Shown piece by piece: positions 44,590 to 54,970 of a stretch of DNA of 64,000 bases. A program made the translations under genes and the position numbers. The notes beneath the pieces are model-generated. The model was given only the letters and a program-made list of their open reading frames with translations. It did not search any database and was not told the DNA's origin. How positions within the stretch are numbered: the stretch's first letter is position 1; each line of letters starts with the position of its first letter. Source of the DNA: Patescibacteria group bacterium (GTDB taxonomy: Bacteria > Patescibacteriota > Saccharimonadia > UBA4664 > SCTI01); NCBI GenBank assembly GCA_004297735.1, contig SCTI01000002.1:417578-481577 (forward strand), in the 5' to 3' direction.

Positions 44590-44788
44590 TGGGTATTCCT
44601 AACTTTTAGTAATCTAAAATAAGCATAACCATAATATGGGGTTATGGCAAGTTTAACCAAGATTTTGACTTGTATTAATTTATCAACTAGGTTATCTTTT
44701 TATGGATGAAAAACTATCCGCCCAAGCGAATAGACCAAGCCGCCTAGGGGCGGCTTTTTTCTTGCCCATTCACAACCGAGAGGACAAA

Positions 44789-45280
44789 ATGAGGTCAAAC
44801 CTGGTGCGCTGGGATTTTGAAGTAAGCGTCGATATTCAGGCAAAGGCGGTTAATCGAGCGAGTATTCAGTACACCCTGTTGGTGCGCTGCCCGCTCTGCT
44901 CAAGCTTGCATCAGCAGCTTAGTCCGGTCTTTTCCGCCCTTAATCGGGCCAACTACCGGCATGTTGATGAGCGAATGAAGTATCGCATGGTCATTAAGGA
45001 TGATGACGGCGACATCGTTGAGGTGATCGAATGGGTGACTCGCCAGAACATCGGTCACGAAACTCGTAACTTTATGACCGGTACCTGGAATTGCTCCGAT
45101 TGTGGCATCAACTTTGGTCTGACCGCGACCGAGCAGCGCCAGGTGCTCAAGGATGTAACCGATAAGGTTACGGTAGAGGCAATTGACGAAGAGATCATTC
45201 GTCTCGAAAAAGCCATATCGGGCGATCCGGCGACATCGAGAGGTCACAAAAAGCGCTACTGGTACCTCATGACAACTTAG
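44789..45280 (+). CDS. Hypothetical Zn-ribbon protein
   Basis: CPLCSS...CSDCG (four Cys). GAGAGGA RBS before the ATG at 44789. The ORF track starts the frame at 44702. Confidence 0.45.
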   Translation: MRSNLVRWDFEVSVDIQAKAVNRASIQYTLLVRCPLCSSLHQQLSPVFSALNRANYRHVDERMKYRMVIKDDDGDIVEVIEWVTRQNIGHETRNFMTGTWNCSDCGINFGLTATEQRQVLKDVTDKVTVEAIDEEIIRLEKAISGDPATSRGHKKRYWYLMTT

Positions 45281-46126: not shown

Positions 46127-46178
46127 CCACTGGGTCTACGAGAGAGGTTTACGACTTCACTCGTGGGCCTCTTTCTTT

Positions 46179-48086
46179 TTAATCGGCGGTACGGTTGGTG
46201 GGCTGAACTGTACCTAACGGTATGGTCGCTCCAGTGTCATCCCAGAGGTTGCTGGTCCAGGTGATTTGAGCTTGGGCGCTTTGTGAATACTGAAACACGC
46301 CATACTGCGATCCCAGCGACCAGATATTACGCATAAAGCGATTATTTTGAATGACGATATTGGTAAGTGTATTTGCTCCAACCGGGTGGGCATAGACGGT
46401 GTAGCTGCCCGCACCCTGAAGCAGGTTGTTTTCGACGGTTACGTTTGAGATCGCACCGTCATCGGCCTTAATGATTACGCACGAGGTGCCGTTGTTGGTG
46501 TGTGCACCGGTGTAGTACCAGCTGCGCGGGTCGATGTAATTGCCTCTTATGGTGACGTTATCTCCCATTACTAGCTGAATTCCGTCACAGTGGTTGGTGC
46601 TCACCCCATCACCCTTTAAGTAGGCGTAAAGATCGTGAATATAGCAATCTTCGATGGTGGCGTTACCGGCCGCTTTAAAAGCGTCACCAAATCCGTAAAT
46701 ATTCACTCGCCGGGCGGTAAAGTCGCTATAGCCAATGCCGAAATCAAGGGCGATACCGTTGCCGGTGGGTTGGCCATCGACGTCAAACCATTGGCTGTCG
46801 GGCGGCGCGACGGTGCAATCTTCAATAATGGGCGAATTGCCGTTGGAGCGAATGTAGTTTTCGACCCGACAGAACCGAATCATCACGTCGGTATGCTGTA
46901 CCTCGATGTAGCCCTTAACGTTGAGGTTTTCAATCACCTGCCCATTGTAGGAGGTGGTGAGGTTGCCGTTATAGGTGCTCAGGGTGGTTCCCGCTGGAAC
47001 ACCGGTGGTATAGGCGCTTGGGTACACGTAACCGCCCGGACTGGCGGAGCCCCAGCTTGAGCCATTATGAATTGAGGAGTTGGAGTTCTGCCAGCGGCTG
47101 CCATTCCAGACCGCTACGCCTTCAACGCTGGGTCGCGCATTAACGGTAATGGTGACGGTATCGGTGTGGGTGGCTGTTCCGGAATCGGTCACGGTAACCT
47201 GGAAAACATAGGTGCCGGTAGTGGTAATGTACACCTGGGCTTTTTGAATATTGGCATTTTTAATGGTTGGGCTAGAGGGTCCAGAAATTTGAGTCCATGC
47301 ATAGGTGAGGACGCGACTAGAATCGGCGGCTCCGCTTGTGTCTTCGGCGTCTAGCGAAGCGCTGGCATCAAGCACCACGGTGGTTTTGGAGTAAACGGTC
47401 TGGTCGGCGCCAGCGCTGGCCACCGGGTTGACATTAACAATGTCTGGGGCCGGTTTAAGTGCAACATGTACGGCCGAAGAGTTACCGGTTAGATTGCTGG
47501 TTAATGTGACTGTGCCGGTGGCTCCAGCGGTAGCGTAGAGTTTTTCAAAAACAGCATGGTTGATTTGAGTGTTTAAGCCATAGTCGGCGCGCTCGGTTTG
47601 ATCGCCTGGTGCGGTAAAATCACTAGCAACACCGCCGTTACCGCCATTGTTGTTTTGACTACCAATTGCTAGTACTACAGCGTTGTTGGTAAGTGTGGTG
47701 ATCGATGGGGCGGTTAGGCTGGCGGTCGTAGTCCCACCACTAGCCTCAACCGGAGTGGTCGTATCAACCCCAGAATAACGCAGCATAAAACCGGCAGCCG
47801 GTGTACTTCCTCCGCTAACTACAAAGTCGTATGAAGCCGGTTCGCTGCCGGTAGCAAGCTTGGTATAAACGATGGTTTGATCGCTAGAGTTTGAGGTACC
47901 AAATCCACCCTGGGCGCGCTGAGTGAATCCGCTAGGCACGCTTGAAATTGTTCTGGTGTTACGAATTGAGACAACGGCAACCAGAGTGTCGTTAGCAACG
48001 ACGCCACTGGGCTTGGTGATTGTGAGGGTGGTAACGAAAGCGCCGTTATTGGTTGACGTTCCAACGCTGCGGTATTGAATAGCCAT
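46179..48086 (-). CDS. Phage-type tailspike/receptor-binding protein: N-terminal adaptor, PKD/Ig-like domain, right-handed parallel beta-helix (pectin-lyase fold)
   Basis: YAWTQISGPSSPTIKNANIQ...YVFQVTVTDSGTATHTDTVTITVNA is the Ig-like domain. Repeated beta-helix rungs: IRFCRVENYI, IEDCTVAPPD, ATIEDCYIHDL, NVTIRGNYIDP, NVTVENNLL, NIVIQNNRF. Confidence 0.6.
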   Translation of the reverse strand: MAIQYRSVGTSTNNGAFVTTLTITKPSGVVANDTLVAVVSIRNTRTISSVPSGFTQRAQGGFGTSNSSDQTIVYTKLATGSEPASYDFVVSGGSTPAAGFMLRYSGVDTTTPVEASGGTTTASLTAPSITTLTNNAVVLAIGSQNNNGGNGGVASDFTAPGDQTERADYGLNTQINHAVFEKLYATAGATGTVTLTSNLTGNSSAVHVALKPAPDIVNVNPVASAGADQTVYSKTTVVLDASASLDAEDTSGAADSSRVLTYAWTQISGPSSPTIKNANIQKAQVYITTTGTYVFQVTVTDSGTATHTDTVTITVNARPSVEGVAVWNGSRWQNSNSSIHNGSSWGSASPGGYVYPSAYTTGVPAGTTLSTYNGNLTTSYNGQVIENLNVKGYIEVQHTDVMIRFCRVENYIRSNGNSPIIEDCTVAPPDSQWFDVDGQPTGNGIALDFGIGYSDFTARRVNIYGFGDAFKAAGNATIEDCYIHDLYAYLKGDGVSTNHCDGIQLVMGDNVTIRGNYIDPRSWYYTGAHTNNGTSCVIIKADDGAISNVTVENNLLQGAGSYTVYAHPVGANTLTNIVIQNNRFMRNIWSLGSQYGVFQYSQSAQAQITWTSNLWDDTGATIPLGTVQPTNRTAD

Positions 48087-48089
48087 ATG

Positions 48090-48593
48090 TTATGGCCCGG
48101 AGGTGTTTATCCAGATGTCTCCCGAGGCCAGCGTAACGCCCACCGATGCCGGATCAACCGTCCCGCGAAAGATGCGGCTGCTTGACGTTACAACATAACT
48201 ATTGGTACCGGAATCGTAGGTGTAGACCGCCGCCGCTGTGTCGGCTCGTGTCAGGCTGGTTTGGGTGCTGGAGTCCAGCTTGGTTCGAGCTATTGCCGCC
48301 CCACTGGCCACCTCGGTGTTGGTGATAGCTAGGCTGAGCTTGCTTTGGGCAATTGCTGCACCCGAAGCCACCTTGGCATTGGTAATTGCACCGTCCGCAA
48401 CGGTGGTGTCGTTGAGCTTGGTCTGAACAGCTGTTGCCAGCTTGGTTTCTGTAATAATGCCGTCTTGAATCTGACCGGCACCAACCGTATTTGATTTAAG
48501 CTCTCCAGTGTCGGATAGGCTTTGCGATAAGTACTCATTTAAAATATCACCCCATGAGCCGTTGTCTTGGCCGGGAATAGGTAGTCGAGCCAT
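48090..48593 (-). CDS. Phage tail-fibre N-terminal/repeat protein
   Basis: MARLPIPGQDNGSWGDILNEYL, then the tail-fibre repeat pattern I.DG.IT..KLA..AV...KL. Its stop lies 3 nt from the tailspike start. Confidence 0.6.
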   Translation of the reverse strand: MARLPIPGQDNGSWGDILNEYLSQSLSDTGELKSNTVGAGQIQDGIITETKLATAVQTKLNDTTVADGAITNAKVASGAAIAQSKLSLAITNTEVASGAAIARTKLDSSTQTSLTRADTAAAVYTYDSGTNSYVVTSSSRIFRGTVDPASVGVTLASGDIWINTSGP

Positions 48594-48693
48594 TTAATTG
48601 TGCCTCACGGTATAACTCATGTCGCTTATGATTATTGTGTATACGTTACCTTTGGTCAACAGCTAAATAACAGGTTTATCAATTTAACGAAAA

Positions 48694-48742
48694 ACCCGCC
48701 GGTGCGACCGGGGCCACACCTTGGTGCGGGTTTCCGTGTCGC
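48694..48742 (-). terminator. Rho-independent terminator (minus strand) between the small-gene pair and the tail-fibre operon
   Basis: On the minus strand, aaacccgc...gcgggtttt is followed by a T-run, with inner ccggtgcgaccgg and caccttggtg hairpins. Confidence 0.6.
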
Positions 48743-48756
48743 CCCAGCGGGGGGAT

Positions 48757-49113
48757 TTAGGACTGAAATACAGCGATCTCGCCGTAGAACATGTATTCAA
48801 TTTGGTAGACCTCGCGTAATTCCGCGTTCAGCCTCTCTCTTTCGGTGAGCGAGAATGGAATAGGTGGGAGCAACTTCTCCAGCTCCCCAAAAGCCCTAAG
48901 CAGCTTCTGGGTCGACTGCTTGCTCCCGTCGAGCGCGTAGTAGCTGCTATTCTGGGTTGGATCATGTCCAGTTTTGAGCGCCACAACTTGATTTTGGTGG
49001 GAGTGAAAACCCCCGCTGCTCAGCTGTTTTACGCCCGTTGGAATGGCTTGCCGAATTTCTTCGACAATATCCGATACCTCTAGATGCAGCATTGCTAATT
49101 CTCGGAAGCTCAT
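48757..49113 (-). CDS. Hypothetical protein
   Basis: 118 aa. Sits 7 nt downstream of the next gene on the same strand. Confidence 0.45.
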   Translation of the reverse strand: MSFRELAMLHLEVSDIVEEIRQAIPTGVKQLSSGGFHSHQNQVVALKTGHDPTQNSSYYALDGSKQSTQKLLRAFGELEKLLPPIPFSLTERERLNAELREVYQIEYMFYGEIAVFQS

Positions 49114-49120
49114 AGCTAGC

Positions 49121-49492
49121 TCAGTAGAAAGGGATGATCATGAGATCTAGCTTGATCTCTGGCTTAGATACGTCGGGCAGAAGCTTTTTGACCGCCGCCT
49201 CCAGCTCGTGCTTAAAGGAGTTTACGGCGCCGCTACAGAGCTTTGCCGGAACCCAAACTCGCACCTGAACGTCGAAGCGGGCGCTGTCACTGTTATTGGT
49301 GAAGTAGAACAGGTAGTTGACCGCTCCGGGCAGCTGAATTCCCAGCTCCTCAAGGTCAAACATATTTGCCGCTACGCTGATCACGACATCTTTCAGGTTG
49401 TCGGGTAGATCTTTCATGGCGTAGCCATACCGCTCATGGGCCGTATGTCGCATGAAAACCTCGATATTCCAGTCCGACATAACTATCTCCAA
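49121..49492 (-). CDS. Hypothetical protein
   Basis: 123 aa. Its 5' leader contains the perfect palindrome ggttgagcc-a-ggctcaacc. Confidence 0.45.
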   Translation of the reverse strand: MEIVMSDWNIEVFMRHTAHERYGYAMKDLPDNLKDVVISVAANMFDLEELGIQLPGAVNYLFYFTNNSDSARFDVQVRVWVPAKLCSGAVNSFKHELEAAVKKLLPDVSKPEIKLDLMIIPFY

Positions 49493-49635
49493 TTTCGGGG
49501 TTGAGCCAGGCTCAACCAGGTGCTTTCAAGAGAATATGCTATTTTGGCATTCACAAGCTATAAAATGCAAGCATAAAAACAAAGAACGCCCCGCGGTAAC
49601 GGCAGCCCAAAGGGCGTTCTTGTTACTGCGGGGCG

Positions 49636-50311
49636 CTAGACCAGGTGGGCGTAGCTCCCGACGACGTGAACTACTAGCTCCTCGAAATCGACTCCGAGGA
49701 TTGAGCAGACCGCCGCTGCCGTTGCCGGATCAAGGCGTTCACGATCCTTGATGAGTTCGGCGGCTAACCGACACTGTTCGGATTTGTTGGGGGTGTACCT
49801 TTCGACGTCATCTTTTACGACGCTAAGAAGTTGGCGCTCAAAGGCAGCATCCTCTTGTCTGCCGACCTCGCGGGCCGCCTCGAGATGAGCCTGATCCTCC
49901 TGGTTCTGACGGTTGAACTCGATCTGCTCGGCGCTTGCTTTGCGCTGCTGGCGTAGACCCTGATCCTCGTCGAGCGAGTAGAGCGTCATGCCGGCCGCTA
50001 GCTGAGTGACCACGCCCTCGGGAGTGCCTTCGGGGCACAGGACAAAGTGAAGGCGCGGACGTGGCAGGTGCTGTTGCTCGAAGAACAGCACCGAGTCAGC
50101 CAGCCGGATGGTTGTATTATCTGGCAGCTCGGTCGGCCAGACCGCGCAGAACACAGATCATCTGACTGGTTTTTTCCTCGCTGCGTAGCGGGGAGGCGAG
50201 CAGCACGGGTTTGACTTGGGGTAGCTCGCTCCGGCTTTCTGCAATGGCCTCGGCGCACTCAAGGAGCGAGGTATACAGTTCGCCATTGAGCCCATTGTGA
50301 GTGGAAGTCAT
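49636..50311 (-). pseudogene. Frameshifted paralog of the 50449..50886 gene (two overlapping ORFs, 50117..50311 and 49636..50154)
   Basis: MTSTHNG...LRSEEKTSQ in one frame continues as ...TELPDNTTIRLADSVLFFEQQHL in another. The intact paralog reads through contiguously (EEKSSQTLTVLPADPALFQWHTY). The frames change around the homopolymer at 50170-50175 (plus-strand TTTTTT). Confidence 0.5.
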
Positions 50312-50448
50312 GTGGCCTCTCGGTGGTTGGTATTTCAAGGAAAGCAATATTGTACAATAAATCATAAGATTATCAATAATAAGAGCTAATAAAAGCAAAA
50401 CGCCCGCCGACCACATGGCCGGTCTTACGGCGTTTGCGGTCAGCGGGC

Positions 50449-50886
50449 TTAGGCGGCCAGCGGTGTATCTCGAAGCCGAGTCCGGTTACGGCCCACCTGC
50501 CAGCTGGGCGCAGCGGGCGCCAGGATCAGGCCGTGAGGGCCTGGGTGAACCTGGTGAAGCCGAATTCCGGTCTGAAGCTCTCGGATGACCCTTGCAGCCG
50601 TCTCGTATGGGCAGGTCGCCAGGTAGAGGCAGTTGAGCCCGTAGGTGTGCCACTGAAACAGGGCCGGGTCGGCCGGGAGGACGGTCAGAGTCTGGCTCGA
50701 CTTTTCCTCCACCTGTTCGCGAAGGTAGGTGCTCATCAGTTCGAGCTTGTGAGGGAACCCGAATTCCCACTTGAGCGAACTCAGGTTGATCCCAGTGCCA
50801 CCGTTTCCTAGCCGCATAAACCCGGCGCACTGTTCGAGTAGATCCAAAGTGCGACGGTCTAGCAGGCTGGCTGCTGTGGAGGTCAT
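50449..50886 (-). CDS. Hypothetical protein, paralog family MTST...
   Basis: 145 aa. It has its own promoter (TTGATT-17-TAAAAT) and its own intrinsic terminator at about 50398-50440. Confidence 0.5.
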   Translation of the reverse strand: MTSTAASLLDRRTLDLLEQCAGFMRLGNGGTGINLSSLKWEFGFPHKLELMSTYLREQVEEKSSQTLTVLPADPALFQWHTYGLNCLYLATCPYETAARVIRELQTGIRLHQVHPGPHGLILAPAAPSWQVGRNRTRLRDTPLAA

Positions 50887-51009
50887 GTAACTCCTTTTTT
50901 CGGTTCAAAGAACAGATTATATTTTACAATAAAACAGATGAATAATCAATATAAAAAGTCAATAAAAACGAAAACCCCCAAGCGGGGGCTTTCGCCTCTA
51001 CCTGAGGGT

Positions 51010-51732
51010 CTAATCGATGAGCGATGGTGGGACGTGAGGCGCCAGGTTGACTGCCTGCGCCAGCATGTGCGGCGTGTCGAGCACCAGCGGTGCGTGATCC
51101 GGCGCGTGAATGGTGCCAGTGGCCAACAGGCGAACGACTCGGGTATTTCTGGGGTCGTGTCGCGGTGACTCCACAACCTCGACGATGTCGCCATCAAGTA
51201 GGTGGCGAGTTCCAAAAAGGGAGTGCCAGCCTCGCCGACTCTCTCCCATGGACTGCATTCCGTAGTAGGGGTGCGATTCGAAGAAGGTCTCCTGGAAGGC
51301 ATCGAACATACACACCGGTTCACCATCTTCGCTCAGCACTGGGTAGGCGAAGATGTCGCCTTGACGCCGAGTGTGTTCGTGACCGAACTCCTCTTCGCTC
51401 CACTTGATGAAGTCTGGCTTGAGCGCCTCGAACAAGGCCTGTTCGCCGTCTCGCTCAAGCACATCCTTGAGCTGCCCGCGGACGGACACCAAAAAAGGCT
51501 GTTCGTCGGTGCCACCGAAATAGAGAGCACCGGTTTGATAGTTCGGCCGCCGTCCTTCGAAGAACAGGAACTGCTCCCCGCCGAGAAGCGGATGGAACTC
51601 TGCGCCCTTGCCTGGGCGCAGGATGATGCTTGACTTAATCCGCTGAGCCCCTTCTGCATATTCGTTCGAGGGGTGAGTGCTCAACTGAGCCAGTCCCGCC
51701 GTCTGGGGGAGCTTCTTCATGTCAACGATCAT
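51010..51732 (-). CDS. Hypothetical protein (possible cupin/double-stranded beta-helix-like His motifs)
   Basis: 240 aa with FGHEHTRRQGD and TGTIHAPDHAP. An intrinsic terminator lies downstream at about 50967-50995 (cccccgcttggggg plus a T-run on the minus strand). Confidence 0.4.
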   Translation of the reverse strand: MIVDMKKLPQTAGLAQLSTHPSNEYAEGAQRIKSSIILRPGKGAEFHPLLGGEQFLFFEGRRPNYQTGALYFGGTDEQPFLVSVRGQLKDVLERDGEQALFEALKPDFIKWSEEEFGHEHTRRQGDIFAYPVLSEDGEPVCMFDAFQETFFESHPYYGMQSMGESRRGWHSLFGTRHLLDGDIVEVVESPRHDPRNTRVVRLLATGTIHAPDHAPLVLDTPHMLAQAVNLAPHVPPSLID

Positions 51733-51916
51733 TACCGTAACCTCTTTCGGTTTTTGTTCGGTTACTTGTATCTAGGATAGATGGGCCGACGGAAAAGTGC
51801 AAGGGGCAATATAGCCGCATTCTTTCAGTGAGCAAAGGTCTTAAGCTTTTATTTTTATGCCTAAAATGGTAAACATATAACGATTTAGCCATTGGACATT
51901 GACAAGGAGGTACGAG

Positions 51917-53248
51917 GTGTACGGAACGAAAGATCTTGCCCTGCAGCCTTCATTGGTGAATATTTGGGCGTGGGCAGTGGAGGGTGATCTGACTCACCGG
52001 CCTCATCCGTGTGTGGGTATTGACGATGCGCTGGTCGGCTGGGAGCCATGCGAAACAATTGGTGAGTTTATTTCGCTCCTGCAAGAGGAAATGAGACGAG
52101 CGGAGGACCTCACGAGCGAAATCCCGGACGTAGCTCGTAAAAGGGTAGAATTTTTTATCCGCCGAGTGGCGCGCAAGGTGCCCGAGAGCTTGGTGAGCGG
52201 ACTTTGGATAGTGAGAAACGTGTTGCGTTTCGAATCACCTGAGTTTTCGGAGCACTGGTTCGATATAGTAGGCGTGTTCATTAAAACTGTTCATACTCTA
52301 GCCGGGACTGAGCATCGTCTTCTGGTTGGGACAAAAGATCATAAGCCTGCTTGGTGCAAGCTTGATCCACCCGTAAGAACGATGGACGATTGGTGTGATC
52401 TAATCGACAGCGCATTCTTTGATGATGCACAGATCATGCCCTTTATCAGCGAGGATGATACCGATCTAATCCCTCACCCCCTAGAATGGGTGCCATCAAA
52501 AACGCTTACCAAGATGTGGAAATCCTTTCCGGATGTTGACCGTTCAGTGGTCGAAGGGGTTTTTGAGAGCGCTTACTACAACCAACACTTCACCCCTTAT
52601 CCTCACGGAATGGTGGTTAGAATTGAGGGACATACATGGATTAAGCAGCTTACCTTAAAGGTCAATAAGGGCGTTCAGGATGCTAACTACCTGGACTTTC
52701 TTGCCCGTATCCAAACCGTCGACGGCGAATTGACCTATATGGTGAATGGAGCTGATATTACGCATGAAATAAGCACGATGACGGTATCCTCCATTGGGAC
52801 TAACTATCTAGACCTTCTGATTGCGCAAATCTTCCACGATCTTGTAACCGTGAGGCGGCAACATAGTGTGGCCGGGGGAGTTCAGCTAGTTGGCGAGGGG
52901 AAGCCGGAGGAGCTGAACGGCGTTAGCTGGATTTACATACCTCGGACCCATCGCTTAAAAAATAATGCTGAGATCCGTCTTCCAAGTACTAACTCAGAGC
53001 CTCGGTCGCCACATAGGGTTCAGGGGCACCCTCGCAAAGGCAATATGTCAGAGGAGCAACGCTTTAGAATTGAGGAATTTGAGGCTTCTACCGGACTAGA
53101 GGTTCTTAGGCATCTTCCAGAGGGACACACCTATGTGCGCCCCCACGTATCACCGCTGTCGGACGTTGACGAGCTTAGCCTCCTGCCAAAGTTTGTGCGA
53201 ACTCGTCTTCAGAATGACTTGATCCGGATTATGCAGACACTGCCCTAG
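51917..53248 (+). CDS. Hypothetical 443-aa protein
   Basis: GTG start 5 nt after AAGGAGGT (the ORF track's TTG start at 51899 includes the SD itself). No recognisable catalytic motif. Confidence 0.45.
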   Translation: MYGTKDLALQPSLVNIWAWAVEGDLTHRPHPCVGIDDALVGWEPCETIGEFISLLQEEMRRAEDLTSEIPDVARKRVEFFIRRVARKVPESLVSGLWIVRNVLRFESPEFSEHWFDIVGVFIKTVHTLAGTEHRLLVGTKDHKPAWCKLDPPVRTMDDWCDLIDSAFFDDAQIMPFISEDDTDLIPHPLEWVPSKTLTKMWKSFPDVDRSVVEGVFESAYYNQHFTPYPHGMVVRIEGHTWIKQLTLKVNKGVQDANYLDFLARIQTVDGELTYMVNGADITHEISTMTVSSIGTNYLDLLIAQIFHDLVTVRRQHSVAGGVQLVGEGKPEELNGVSWIYIPRTHRLKNNAEIRLPSTNSEPRSPHRVQGHPRKGNMSEEQRFRIEEFEASTGLEVLRHLPEGHTYVRPHVSPLSDVDELSLLPKFVRTRLQNDLIRIMQTLP

Positions 53249-53461: not shown

Positions 53462-54970
53462 TTATGGCCGTCGGATTCGTCCAACAAACCACGGAGGCGT
53501 CTCTTCGGCAGGCGGAACTCCGCGACGGGCTTTGCGTTTGAGACAGCGCTCAACCTCGGTGCGCAGCAGCGGGCCGTCGGGATGGGCGTCACTGATGACC
53601 TCGGGGTCACCCGACACCTTGACCCGAACTAGGAGCTGGATGTCATGGGGAAGTACCGGGAAGGTCGACTTAACGCCGCAATCCTCGCGGTTCTTCTTGT
53701 AGGTGACCAGCGGTACAGTTACCACGCCAACCGGCTTGAGCTCACCGTCCACCCGGTCAAAGAAGTACTCAACCGGGTAGCTGGTGGGCTTCTTGTTGCC
53801 GGCGATCTCCACCGTCATGGGTGCCAGATCGTACAGCCCCTGCTCCATCATCTCCTCGATGAGCTCGCGATCGTCGGGTAGCCGTAGATCGGTGGTCAGG
53901 AGCTTATCGGCAGCGACTCCTTCGAGCCGCTGACGGTAGTGCTCCCGAACCGTCTCTTCGGTGTAGCGATCGATATCTCCGCCCGACCGGATGCTGAACA
54001 GGTCGTAGGCGGCGATGAGCTCGTTGTTGAACCTGACGTCCGGGTGGGTGATCCGCCCAGACAACAGCTCCTCTAACAGCGACTCAGAGACGTCCTGGCT
54101 GGTGAGCCGTTCGATCTCCTTTTCGACCTCTCGAATCGCCTGCACTGCGCTGTCGCGTGAATGACCGTAGCGCCGCCCGCGGGAGTCGATGTGGTGCGGC
54201 ATAAAGTCGTCCCACACCACTAGCGAAAGGCTGTCGGAGTACTCCCACTGGAAGGCGTCCGCCACTGTTCGCTGGGCGTGACGGAGGAGTCGTTCGAGCG
54301 TGTCGGTTGGTATGCCGACCGCTTCGAGCTCCGCCAGCTTGACCTGCAGCTCTTTGAGCCGCGTGTCCCAGCTGCGCCGGTCATGGTTGCGCTTCTCCTC
54401 AGTCCTATAGCGGCGGTAGTTGTCCCGCATGCTCTCGAGCGAGTAGCCACGTCCGACGATGTCGCCTTTGGCGTCAATCACCTCAAAGCCAGTGATTTCG
54501 GCGTTGTGCGGCGTTGACGGCCAAGTCGTGAGGTTGAACACGTCGTTGATCGACACCTGAATGGTGGCGGTGACGTACCCCGGGTAGTAGCTGATGGTGT
54601 AGACCGCGTACAGCCAGACACCTTCGTGCTCAAAGCGGTCGGGTTCTGGCGTGGCCGGGACCGGAGGGGTCTCATAGGTCCAGTCGGCCGGCTGGTCAAA
54701 CGACGGCTCAACCGGCGCATAGCGCTGATCGGCCAGCCAGCGGTCAAGATCACGACGTAGACCCTCATCCTTGAGGACGTCGTAGGCCTCGGTCGCCTCG
54801 TTAAACAGCGAACCAGCCTCGGCGAGCTCTTCGGGTGTCGCATCCGGTCCGAGTCGGTCCGGATGTAGCTCCTTGGCGCGATCGCGGTAGGCCCGCTTGA
54901 TGTCGCTGGTGGTGGCCTCGCGGGGCACACCAAGAACAAGGTAGTGATCCTTGAGAATCAACTTTGGCAT
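53462..54970 (-). CDS. J-domain (DnaJ-like) protein with a ~430-aa uncharacterised C-terminal region
   Basis: DHYLVLGVPREATTSDIKRAYRDRAKELHPDR is a canonical J-domain with the HPD tripeptide. No Gly/Phe-rich region and no Zn-finger repeats follow it. Confidence 0.6.
   Translation of the reverse strand: MPKLILKDHYLVLGVPREATTSDIKRAYRDRAKELHPDRLGPDATPEELAEAGSLFNEATEAYDVLKDEGLRRDLDRWLADQRYAPVEPSFDQPADWTYETPPVPATPEPDRFEHEGVWLYAVYTISYYPGYVTATIQVSINDVFNLTTWPSTPHNAEITGFEVIDAKGDIVGRGYSLESMRDNYRRYRTEEKRNHDRRSWDTRLKELQVKLAELEAVGIPTDTLERLLRHAQRTVADAFQWEYSDSLSLVVWDDFMPHHIDSRGRRYGHSRDSAVQAIREVEKEIERLTSQDVSESLLEELLSGRITHPDVRFNNELIAAYDLFSIRSGGDIDRYTEETVREHYRQRLEGVAADKLLTTDLRLPDDRELIEEMMEQGLYDLAPMTVEIAGNKKPTSYPVEYFFDRVDGELKPVGVVTVPLVTYKKNREDCGVKSTFPVLPHDIQLLVRVKVSGDPEVISDAHPDGPLLRTEVERCLKRKARRGVPPAEETPPWFVGRIRRP

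Follow-up and report, generated by a model that had tools for sequence, protein, structure and literature searches.

In the 64-kb stretch analysed here (hereafter the window) of contig SCTI01000002.1, which spans 494,657 bp in a metagenome-assembled genome of a small, parasitic Patescibacteria bacterium, two adjacent genes on the minus strand encode a small fibre-like protein (167 aa) and a large three-domain protein (635 aa), every part of which has phage-tail ancestry. The pair is under strong purifying selection and consists of long-resident, selected cellular genes. Our favoured interpretation, which we offer tentatively, is that the two proteins would form a domesticated receptor-binding or depolymerase module, split into an anchor and a branch and aimed at the envelope glycans of a host of the Actinobacteria type. 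The pair belongs to a large multi-copy family, whose probable role is to bind or cut sugars on the surface of the bacteria that these parasites inhabit. The genes, which are open reading frames (ORFs) identical to NCBI entries, and the domains of their products are the following.

48090..48593, minus strand: small gene, 167-aa fibre-like 'anchor' protein (ORF; identical to NCBI TAK89259.1)
48489..48593, minus strand: codons 1-35, invariant N-terminal motif MARLPIPGQDNGSWGDILNEYLSQSL (columns without variation among 76 family members)
48264..48488, minus strand: codons ~36-110, tail-fibre-type repeats (phrog_2012 matches in 3 stretches; mosaic segment)
48093..48263, minus strand: codons ~111-167, C-terminal domain ending GDIWINT (alignment with orthologues)
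46179..48086, minus strand: large gene, 635-aa three-domain protein (ORF; identical to NCBI TAK89258.1)
47442..48086, minus strand: residues 1-215, beta-sandwich domain of ~200 aa (no Pfam model matched)
47142..47414, minus strand: residues 225-315, K319L-like PKD/Ig domain (Pfam PF22352, E 1.8e-18)
46182..47021, minus strand: residues 356-635, right-handed parallel beta-helix domain (Pfam Beta_helix at 454-608; family-conserved polar residues kept)

Re-derivation of both ORFs and of their spacing confirmed the two-gene unit that a preliminary description of this DNA, made from the sequence alone, had reported: the genes are co-oriented and separated by 3 nt, from the TAA stop of the small gene (48092-48090) to the ATG of the large gene (48086-48084).

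Phage-type anatomy of the two proteins

The signature residues of the N-terminal motif of the small protein are, in the family, R3, L4, P5, G8, D10, W14, G15, L18, N19 and L22. When homologues were aligned, a nearly invariant N-terminal consensus (MARLPxPGxDxGxWGxILNxYLSQ..DGxLK) was found to be followed by repeats and then by wholly variable C-terminal parts. Through its repeats the small protein matched phrog_2012, a 'minor tail protein' (E 1.2e-13), while its residues 1-35 matched the N-termini of tailspikes on 17 IMG/VR contigs with 41-59% identity. On these contigs, the GC content of which ranges from 34 to 67%, the motif is fused directly to proteins of 320-590 aa, and the ones that were scanned (L023 and L014) are pectate-lyase-like tailspikes. 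The gene order on L023 is major head, major tail, tape measure and then the motif tailspike (phrog_2234; Pect-lyase_RHGA_epim). Since tailspikes in IMG/VR share it, the motif is an N-terminus widely used by phage tailspikes, which presumably serves to plug them into the tail. The tail-fibre N-terminus and repeats of the preliminary description were thus borne out by the phrog_2012 match and by the tailspikes that the motif heads. These relatives were found by alignment-based scans of IMG/VR; scans with either protein singly yielded none. In a tblastn search of 50,697 cultured phage genomes, two Streptomyces phages gave weak, partial matches to residues 1-66 of the small protein. No Pfam model matched the motif or the N-terminal domain (N-domain) of the large protein, and no T4 gp10-like domain was detected in the pair.

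Aligned at the DNA level with the orthologues from the related genomes L001 and L003 (see below), the small gene proved to have kept ~70 nt at its 5' end and ~300 nt at its 3' end, whereas its centre had been replaced. The exchanged central third corresponds to 48264-48488 in the window and to L001:9470-9700 and L003:9470-9700, and both ends show ~80% DNA identity. At this place the two orthologues carry a DUF5907/BppL_N-like segment that is absent from the window gene. Such a swap of a central segment is mosaic behaviour typical of fibre genes. The C-terminal domain of the small protein is also conserved in a 175-aa protein that is the partner of a 724-aa homologue of the large protein.

The N- and C-domains of the large protein were modelled separately. 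The closest structural relatives of the N-domain model were stand-alone Caudovirales proteins of ~220 aa (BFVD) and 'minor tail proteins' of Mycobacterium phages (TM 0.7-0.8, E down to 2.6e-12), so that the kinship with phages that had been claimed earlier holds, by structure, for the N-terminal 215 aa. This domain is 36-37% identical to gp44 of a Ruegeria phage, whose gene directly follows tail proteins, and in the cultured phage genomes it gave weak partial matches in 10 records of Ruegeria phages. Proteins of cellular origin contain tandem copies of it too, namely RHS, LamG and metallophosphatase proteins. The match of the second domain to PF22352 reached 66.8 bits (Pfam gathering cutoff, 27), and KIAA0319L PKD domains in the PDB matched the same residues 225-315 with E values of 1e-6 to 4e-4. 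In the beta-helix, a conserved cluster of polar residues is kept (E422, D423, R460, D468, D480, H484, D485, H499, D501 and Q504). Its structural neighbours include AlgG/AlgE epimerases and alginate lyases. Comparison with the Det7 tailspike (6f7k), PL31 (6kfn), AlgE4/AlgG, PL6, GH110, GH87 and PfbA gave identities of 10-20%, and the domain could not be assigned to any CAZy family. The PKD/Ig-like domain and the beta-helix that had been read from the sequence of the large protein were thus both confirmed, by PF22352, by the Beta_helix region in Pfam and by the right-handed beta-helix fold.

Only four full-length homologues of the large protein were found (P0001-P0004). For the beta-helix domain we detected 117 homologues, which are uncharacterised, mostly proteins of 300-450 aa from Actinomycetota and Saccharibacteria. 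At the N-terminus, most of those that stand alone have a Pro/Ser/Thr linker together with a signal peptide or a membrane anchor; one of them, in Micromonospora, adjoins genes for a polysaccharide pyruvyl-transferase, a PIG-L protein, a methyltransferase, an epimerase and a glycosyltransferase. No cultured phage genome among the 50,697 searched with tblastn encodes the domain. Members of the family are also present on 16 IMG/VR contigs, most with signal peptides. The family is mostly cellular and secreted, in Actinomycetota, yet its homologues are not found exclusively in non-phage contexts, an outcome that the preliminary description would have taken as a refutation. On the viral-classed contigs L111, L117, L119 and L121-L124, the members mostly have signal peptides or membrane anchors, which virion proteins seldom carry. 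Their genes may encode secreted enzymes of phages, or may be host genes at the edges of predicted proviruses.

The motif family in other genomes

We scanned the GTDB species representatives (one genome per species) with the motif alignment and found 446 relatives. Among the best 78 loci, 62 were labelled Saccharibacteria, Saccharimonadia or Nanosynbacter, and a few came from Actinomycetota (Gordonia, Mycolicibacterium, Galbitalea, Solirubrobacteraceae). Oral Nanosynbacter-type genomes (L079, L092-L105) contain members as well. The motif is often present in several copies: RIFCSPHIGHO2_12_FULL_44_22 has at least 11 dispersed motif ORFs (genomes of this kind being ~1 Mb), and a single Microsaccharimonas contig of 892 kb has at least 5. 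In the former (Candidatus Saccharibacteria bacterium RIFCSPHIGHO2_12_FULL_44_22, L060:3840-15660), four motif genes encoding 425, 247, 584 and 523 aa lie on one strand within 12 kb.

Motif proteins ranged from 116 to 1588 aa (90 ORFs), the motif always being at the extreme N-terminus. A Pfam census of 76 members yielded Pect-lyase (11), GDSL (7), Beta_helix (6), DUF2961, Collagen and PTR (5 each), DUF5907 (4), NosD and BppL_N (2 each), as well as SASA, Phage_depo_C, Phage_tail_C and an endosialidase N-extension; Peptidase_S74 was not among the families listed for these members. Judged by these Pfam matches, the domains that accompany the motif are those with which phage receptor-binding proteins are equipped. 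The gene that follows a short motif protein usually starts within a few nt of it or overlaps it. Partners encoded separately in this way carry PKD, LamG, GDSL, Kelch, DUF4082/DMFA2_C or GH71 domains, or the N-terminal beta-sandwich of the large protein. The latter arrangement, with a partner that starts with the N-domain after a gap of -19 to +5 nt, was found in the window, L001-L003 (including L002), L053, L061, L070 and L034. We rejected a strict rule by which a small protein ending in GD[IV]W..T pairs with an N-domain-first partner: although P0170 and P0164 end in this way, their partners are Kelch or other proteins, and in L034, L070 and probably L093 there are N-domain partners without that ending.

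The 114 nearest large flanking ORFs at 71 of the loci belonged, by the PHROG families listed for them, to housekeeping families, with no capsid, portal, terminase, tape-measure or sheath protein. Similarly, when the 1303 ORFs of the motif loci were compared by blastp with the ORFs of the motif-bearing phage contigs, essentially the motif proteins alone matched.

Several other arrangements were observed. In L002, a second cassette is convergent to the 175-aa and 724-aa genes (12190-15198, minus strand); it encodes a 296-aa motif protein (BppL_N and DUF5907) and a 705-aa protein, which is rich in Ser, Thr and Gly, begins with MANRYWVGGTATWD and has no Pfam match. Ten metagenome-assembled genomes (MAGs) of Saccharibacteria (L092, L094, L095, L099-L105) share a near-identical pair consisting of a 127-aa motif protein and, after a gap of 26 nt, a 254-255-aa protein that begins MVGLRYKMGQD and in which no family was detected; a related pair of 135 and 252 aa is present in L079 (Candidatus Nanosynbacter). 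Experiments could well begin with the pair of 127 and 254-255 aa, provided that it is present in cultivated strains. Motif contigs were also encountered in MAGs with other labels, namely L063 and L068 (Chloroflexi MAG), L086 (Sulfuriferula MAG) and L090 (Bacillota MAG), with a GC content of 0.46-0.51. Because their gene content looks like that of Saccharibacteria, these four may be mis-binned Patescibacteria contigs.

The literature that we searched contained nothing relevant on tail-fibre- or tailspike-like proteins in Saccharibacteria or on DUF5907, and no description of a motif-defined Saccharibacteria family or of the split pair. There is no 'tail fiber' annotation in the transposon sequencing (Tn-seq) supplements of PMC10633639. 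The parts, and the idea that bacteria domesticate phage fibres, are already known.

Synteny, selection and competing explanations

In L003 (91% amino acid identity) and L001 (79%), both of them related metagenomic genomes, the pair is found in the same chromosomal slot. This slot is bounded on one side by genes for an RRM protein, a DUF5684 protein and a histidine kinase, and on the other side by those for DnaJ and PGK. The adjacent proteins are less alike than the large protein, the identity amounting to 78% and 65% for the histidine kinase and to 72% for the DnaJ-like protein. For the large gene, compared with its two orthologues by the Nei-Gojobori method, omega (the ratio of nonsynonymous to synonymous substitution rates) was 0.038 and 0.059, with a value of ~0.02 in the beta-helix; the neighbouring genes had higher values. 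The synonymous rate (dS) is saturated, and these values are therefore approximate, but their direction is clear. The 724-aa homologue mentioned above (42-44% identity) is found in an unrelated cellular context in L002, directly 3' of the 175-aa motif protein with a 3-nt gap, and near two GT4 glycosyltransferases.

In the preliminary description, the module was called an orphan and was considered as a possible prophage or tailocin remnant. Neither label fits the comparison with related genomes, in which the pair is found at the same locus in L001 and L003 and turns out to be a member of a multi-copy, Saccharibacteria-wide family set among housekeeping genes. A decaying prophage remnant without current function would be in line with the phage ancestry of all parts and with the adjoining block, at 48.7-53.3 kb, of strain-specific ORFs without family. 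Yet both ORFs are intact, the position is the same in genomes whose neighbouring proteins are only 65-78% identical, conservation is higher than that of the neighbours, omega amounts to 0.04-0.06 and the polar residues conserved in the family are retained. Furthermore, no integrase, att-like repeat or phage gene was found near the module. Because of the shared locus in L001 and L003 and of the low omega, a remnant is essentially excluded. What did hold from the preliminary description is that phage structural genes are absent within ~15 kb on each side: each sizeable ORF that was tested from 33.4 to 63.7 kb of the window (Pfam, PHROGs and PADLOC, the scope also of the statement on integrase, att-like repeats and phage genes) has a cellular function or no match, and among them there is no phage structural family and no sheath, tube, baseplate or spike gene of a tailocin or a phage-like translocation structure.

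The arrangement that we propose is the following. The 167-aa protein would be an 'anchor' fibre, in which residues 1-35 are a universal adaptor, followed by repeats of the phage-tail type and by a small domain at the C-terminus. Its translationally coupled neighbour of 635 aa would be the 'branch', and the two may form a physical complex and trimerise. In the branch, a beta-sandwich resembling minor tail proteins would be followed by a PKD/Ig spacer and by a beta-helix of the pectin-lyase fold, the last of which would bind, and probably cleave or modify, a cell-envelope polysaccharide. Across the family, the same adaptor is fused to or paired with many putative glycan-binding or -degrading heads, and the cell may use this repertoire, at an extracellular location, to recognise, hold or locally digest surface glycans of the host bacterium. 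Cultivated Saccharibacteria are obligate epibionts of Actinobacteria. One such bacterium has been shown to need several glycan-binding or -degrading envelope proteins, which are essential (PMC10633639), and hosts remodel their wall polysaccharide upon infection by Saccharibacteria (PMC13622651). We favour a role on host glycans because of this glycan-dependent epibiont biology and host wall remodelling, of the phage-fibre anatomy of the pair and of the analogy with the MAT fibres discussed below. The signal peptides or membrane anchors of the stand-alone beta-helix homologues in Actinomycetota and Saccharibacteria point to an extracytoplasmic action. The concentration of the beta-helix relatives in Actinomycetota, and the mycobacteriophage tail proteins among the phage relatives of the N-domain, fit such a role, although they do not prove it. 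A domesticated adhesin or depolymerase of an epibiont had also been suggested in the preliminary description; synteny, selection and the family make this the reading that we prefer, as a proposal that leaves the lack of signal peptides unexplained.

Several observations weigh against this proposal. A signal peptide or a strongly hydrophobic segment was found in neither protein of the pair and in none of the 90 motif proteins; a role at the surface therefore needs another export route, and assembly in the cytoplasm is the behaviour of virion proteins. The N-terminal motif is without a known docking partner. No accessory gene, for a chaperone or a secretion component for example, consistently adjoins the motif genes, as clustering of 568 nearby ORFs gave only housekeeping families. 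A link with type IV pili was likewise rejected, since prepilin-like ORFs were as frequent within 3 kb of motif genes (0.0149/kb) as farther away (0.0156/kb). Finally, the absence of a phage-like cluster applies to the ORFs tested in the 64-kb window. Either the motif is an export or docking signal for some machine, or cytoplasmic assembly places the proteins on a particle of phage origin whose genes lie elsewhere.

The second of these possibilities is the main rival explanation: the pair and the motif family would be receptor-binding proteins of a phage-derived particle (a prophage, gene transfer agent (GTA) or tailocin) encoded elsewhere in the genome, the motif docking them onto the tail tip after cytoplasmic assembly, in a manner that resembles the accessory genes of RcGTA. 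The motif does stand at the start of tailspikes encoded by viral contigs (on L023, in the gene next after that for the tape measure), the lack of signal peptides is as expected of virion proteins, and the domain repertoire of the family is that of tailspikes and depolymerases. Synteny and purifying selection are equally compatible with a domesticated particle, and the missing structural cluster says nothing beyond the window. However, at least 11 dispersed copies in a genome of ~1 Mb far exceed what known GTAs or tailocins use, no hallmark structural gene was recovered from the ORFs of the window, the flanks of the 71 loci or the blastp comparison with the proteomes of motif phages, and the literature searched holds no report of a GTA or tailocin in Saccharibacteria. 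We consider this explanation unlikely, though worth keeping in mind.

A role in the envelope of the cell itself appears still less probable. The beta-helix would then be a hydrolase, lyase or epimerase trimming or remodelling the cell's own wall polysaccharide or exopolysaccharide, with the fibre protein as a scaffold. Its stand-alone homologues are indeed secreted or anchored cellular proteins, one of them beside polysaccharide-biosynthesis genes, the 724-aa homologue is near two GT4 glycosyltransferases, and the AlgG/AlgE epimerases and alginate lyases among its structural neighbours process self-made polymers. On the other hand, a phage tail adaptor, fibre repeats, mosaic swapping and diversified multi-copy heads are not expected of a self-maintenance enzyme, and no glycan-synthesis genes adjoin the module within the window. 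It is pure speculation, and very improbable, that the pair is an anti-phage decoy, in which host copies of the tail adaptor compete for docking on assembling tails or bind incoming phages. In its favour, the N-terminal adaptor is common to phage tailspikes and the proteins are cytoplasmic by sequence, and phage particles of actinobacterial hosts are known to bind a Saccharibacterium (PMC13578794), but elaborate, conserved heads of catalytic type would be needless, there is no precedent and no PADLOC defence model was matched. A defence system was rejected as well, neither the pair nor its neighbours having a PADLOC match.

The proposal of a module directed at host glycans can be extended to the family, in a form that we hold to be possible but doubtful: the motif MARLPxPGxDxGxWGxILNxYL would mark a Saccharibacteria-wide, phage-derived arsenal that is exported and mounted on the surface without Sec signal peptides and whose heads set the Actinobacteria to which the cells attach and on which they feed. 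The motif might in that case act as an export signal of a new type, or as the plug that fits some shared structure of the surface, and the arsenal a domesticated 'phage host-range system' derived partly from receptor-binding proteins of actinobacteriophages, with the window pair as one cassette.

The closest cellular analogue of the motif family is the mosaic adhesive trimer (MAT) fibre family of Bdellovibrio bacteriovorus, whose 21 members resemble phage fibres, share an invariant N-terminal domain, differ in their tips and are displayed for prey recognition (Caulton et al. 2024, PMC10769870). Both families are multi-copy, cell-encoded and similar to tail fibres or tailspikes, and belong to bacteria that live off other bacteria. 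In both, one invariant end would serve for retention and the other is variable (beta-helix, lectin-like or TNF-like), and both are mosaic, swap tips and are thought to target glycans; the likeness in multiple copies with an invariant N-terminus holds for Saccharibacteria in general. In MAT proteins, a signal peptide is followed by a beta-rich N-domain of ~130 aa, and many have an S74 chaperone-protease end (PMC10769870). In contrast, the motif family has a motif of ~35 residues (within a conserved region of ~35-75 residues of different character), lacks signal peptides altogether and is often split in two genes, and no sequence relationship between the two families was seen, no search aimed at one having been made.

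Branched phage receptor-binding complexes are formed by G7C gp66/gp63.1, CBA120 TSP1-4, the adaptor and tailspikes of K1-5 and SP6, and KP32 gp37/gp38. As is proposed for the window pair, the first protein has a conserved particle-binding N-terminus, an adjacent, coupled second protein is an enzymatic beta-helix and the parts can be swapped. These complexes are encoded inside phage genomes and have a known tail dock, whereas the window pair has no phage nearby and the docking of its two proteins onto one another is a prediction. Compared with tailspike depolymerases and pectin-lyase-fold CAZymes, the window beta-helix shows only the 10-20% identity given above and belongs to a family of mostly secreted Actinomycetota and Saccharibacteria proteins. 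The N-domain resembles, in its fold, minor tail proteins of actinobacteriophages and the ~220-aa Caudovirales proteins and, in its sequence, Ruegeria gp44. The accessory tail-fibre, head-spike and tailspike genes of RcGTA lie outside the main GTA cluster; a detachable RcGTA tailspike is the subject of a preprint. Like the pair, they are phage-derived receptor-binding genes that stand alone among cellular genes and are kept by selection; however, genomes with RcGTA hold a GTA structural cluster, none was seen around the window pair or in the flanks sampled, and the copy number of the motif is much higher.

Leads on host recognition by Patescibacteria and Saccharibacteria have so far been type IV pili and a few glycan-binding envelope proteins (PMC10633639). 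A conserved and diversified family of tailspike- or fibre-like proteins with a common adaptor provides concrete candidates for host-range determinants and, as the Nanosynbacter-type group includes cultivable strains, the idea is directly testable. If true, it would be a second, independent case, after the MAT fibres of Bdellovibrio, of a parasite or predator domesticating phage receptor-binding modules, and it poses a mechanistic puzzle, namely how export proceeds without signal peptides and where the adaptor docks. Should the pair instead belong to a particle encoded elsewhere, an unrecognised phage-derived particle in Saccharibacteria would likewise be of interest.

Sequence surroundings of the pair

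Sites that could delimit a transcription unit were located on both sides of the pair.

48631..48659, minus strand: promoter-like site TTGACC-17 nt-AATAAT (10/12 matches; 38 nt 5' of the ATG of the small gene)
48699..48711, minus strand: small GC hairpin with a T-run after it (past the upstream gene and ahead of the promoter-like site)
46140..46175, no strand assigned: hairpin with a 15-bp stem, directly 3' of the large gene (T-run on the plus strand only)

As the T-run is on the plus strand only, the 15-bp hairpin downstream of the large gene may be a terminator shared with the convergent ORF on the plus strand. Promoter-like sites and hairpins were not more numerous in our scan than in shuffled sequence, and they are therefore weak evidence for an independent transcription unit. 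Thus, the promoter and the downstream hairpin that the preliminary description had ascribed to the pair do exist as sites, but their meaning is less certain than was stated there. The GC content of the module (0.52-0.53) is not anomalous with respect to the window mean (~0.51). The cellular functions recognised among the ORFs tested include a histidine kinase/response regulator, an RRM protein, a DUF5684 protein, a J-domain (DnaJ) protein, a tRNA-editing domain, M16 and M20 peptidases, PGK, UvrD, a Zip transporter, a methyltransferase and a G5/transglycosylase protein.

The region 48757-53248, which adjoins the conserved module on its upstream side, contains ORFs of 118, 123, 172, 145 and 240 aa on the minus strand and one of 449 aa on the plus strand, none of which had a match in Pfam, PHROGs or PADLOC. 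L001 and L003 carry other genes at this position, and forced alignment of the 240-, 172- and 123-aa ORFs with their positional counterparts gave an identity of only 21-24%. For this reason we regard the region as a strain-variable island. The same-strand hypothetical ORFs at 48757-51732 were rejected as members of the module, as they have no family and lack homology with the ORFs at the corresponding places in L001 and L003. Within the island, the GC content climbs to 0.55-0.56 at 50-52 kb.

Two further ORFs deserve mention. A 192-aa ORF with paired Cys motifs (CPLC and CSDC) is present at 44702-45280 on the plus strand, between the genes for the DUF5684 membrane protein and the RRM protein; it had no family match, and the related genomes have only short ORFs at this place. 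On the other side of the pair, at 53462-54970 on the minus strand, lies the gene for a protein of 502 aa that has a J domain at its N-terminus, the long remainder towards the C-terminus being unannotated, and that is conserved with 72% identity in L001 and L003. The GC content reaches 0.615 at this place, the highest value in the window.

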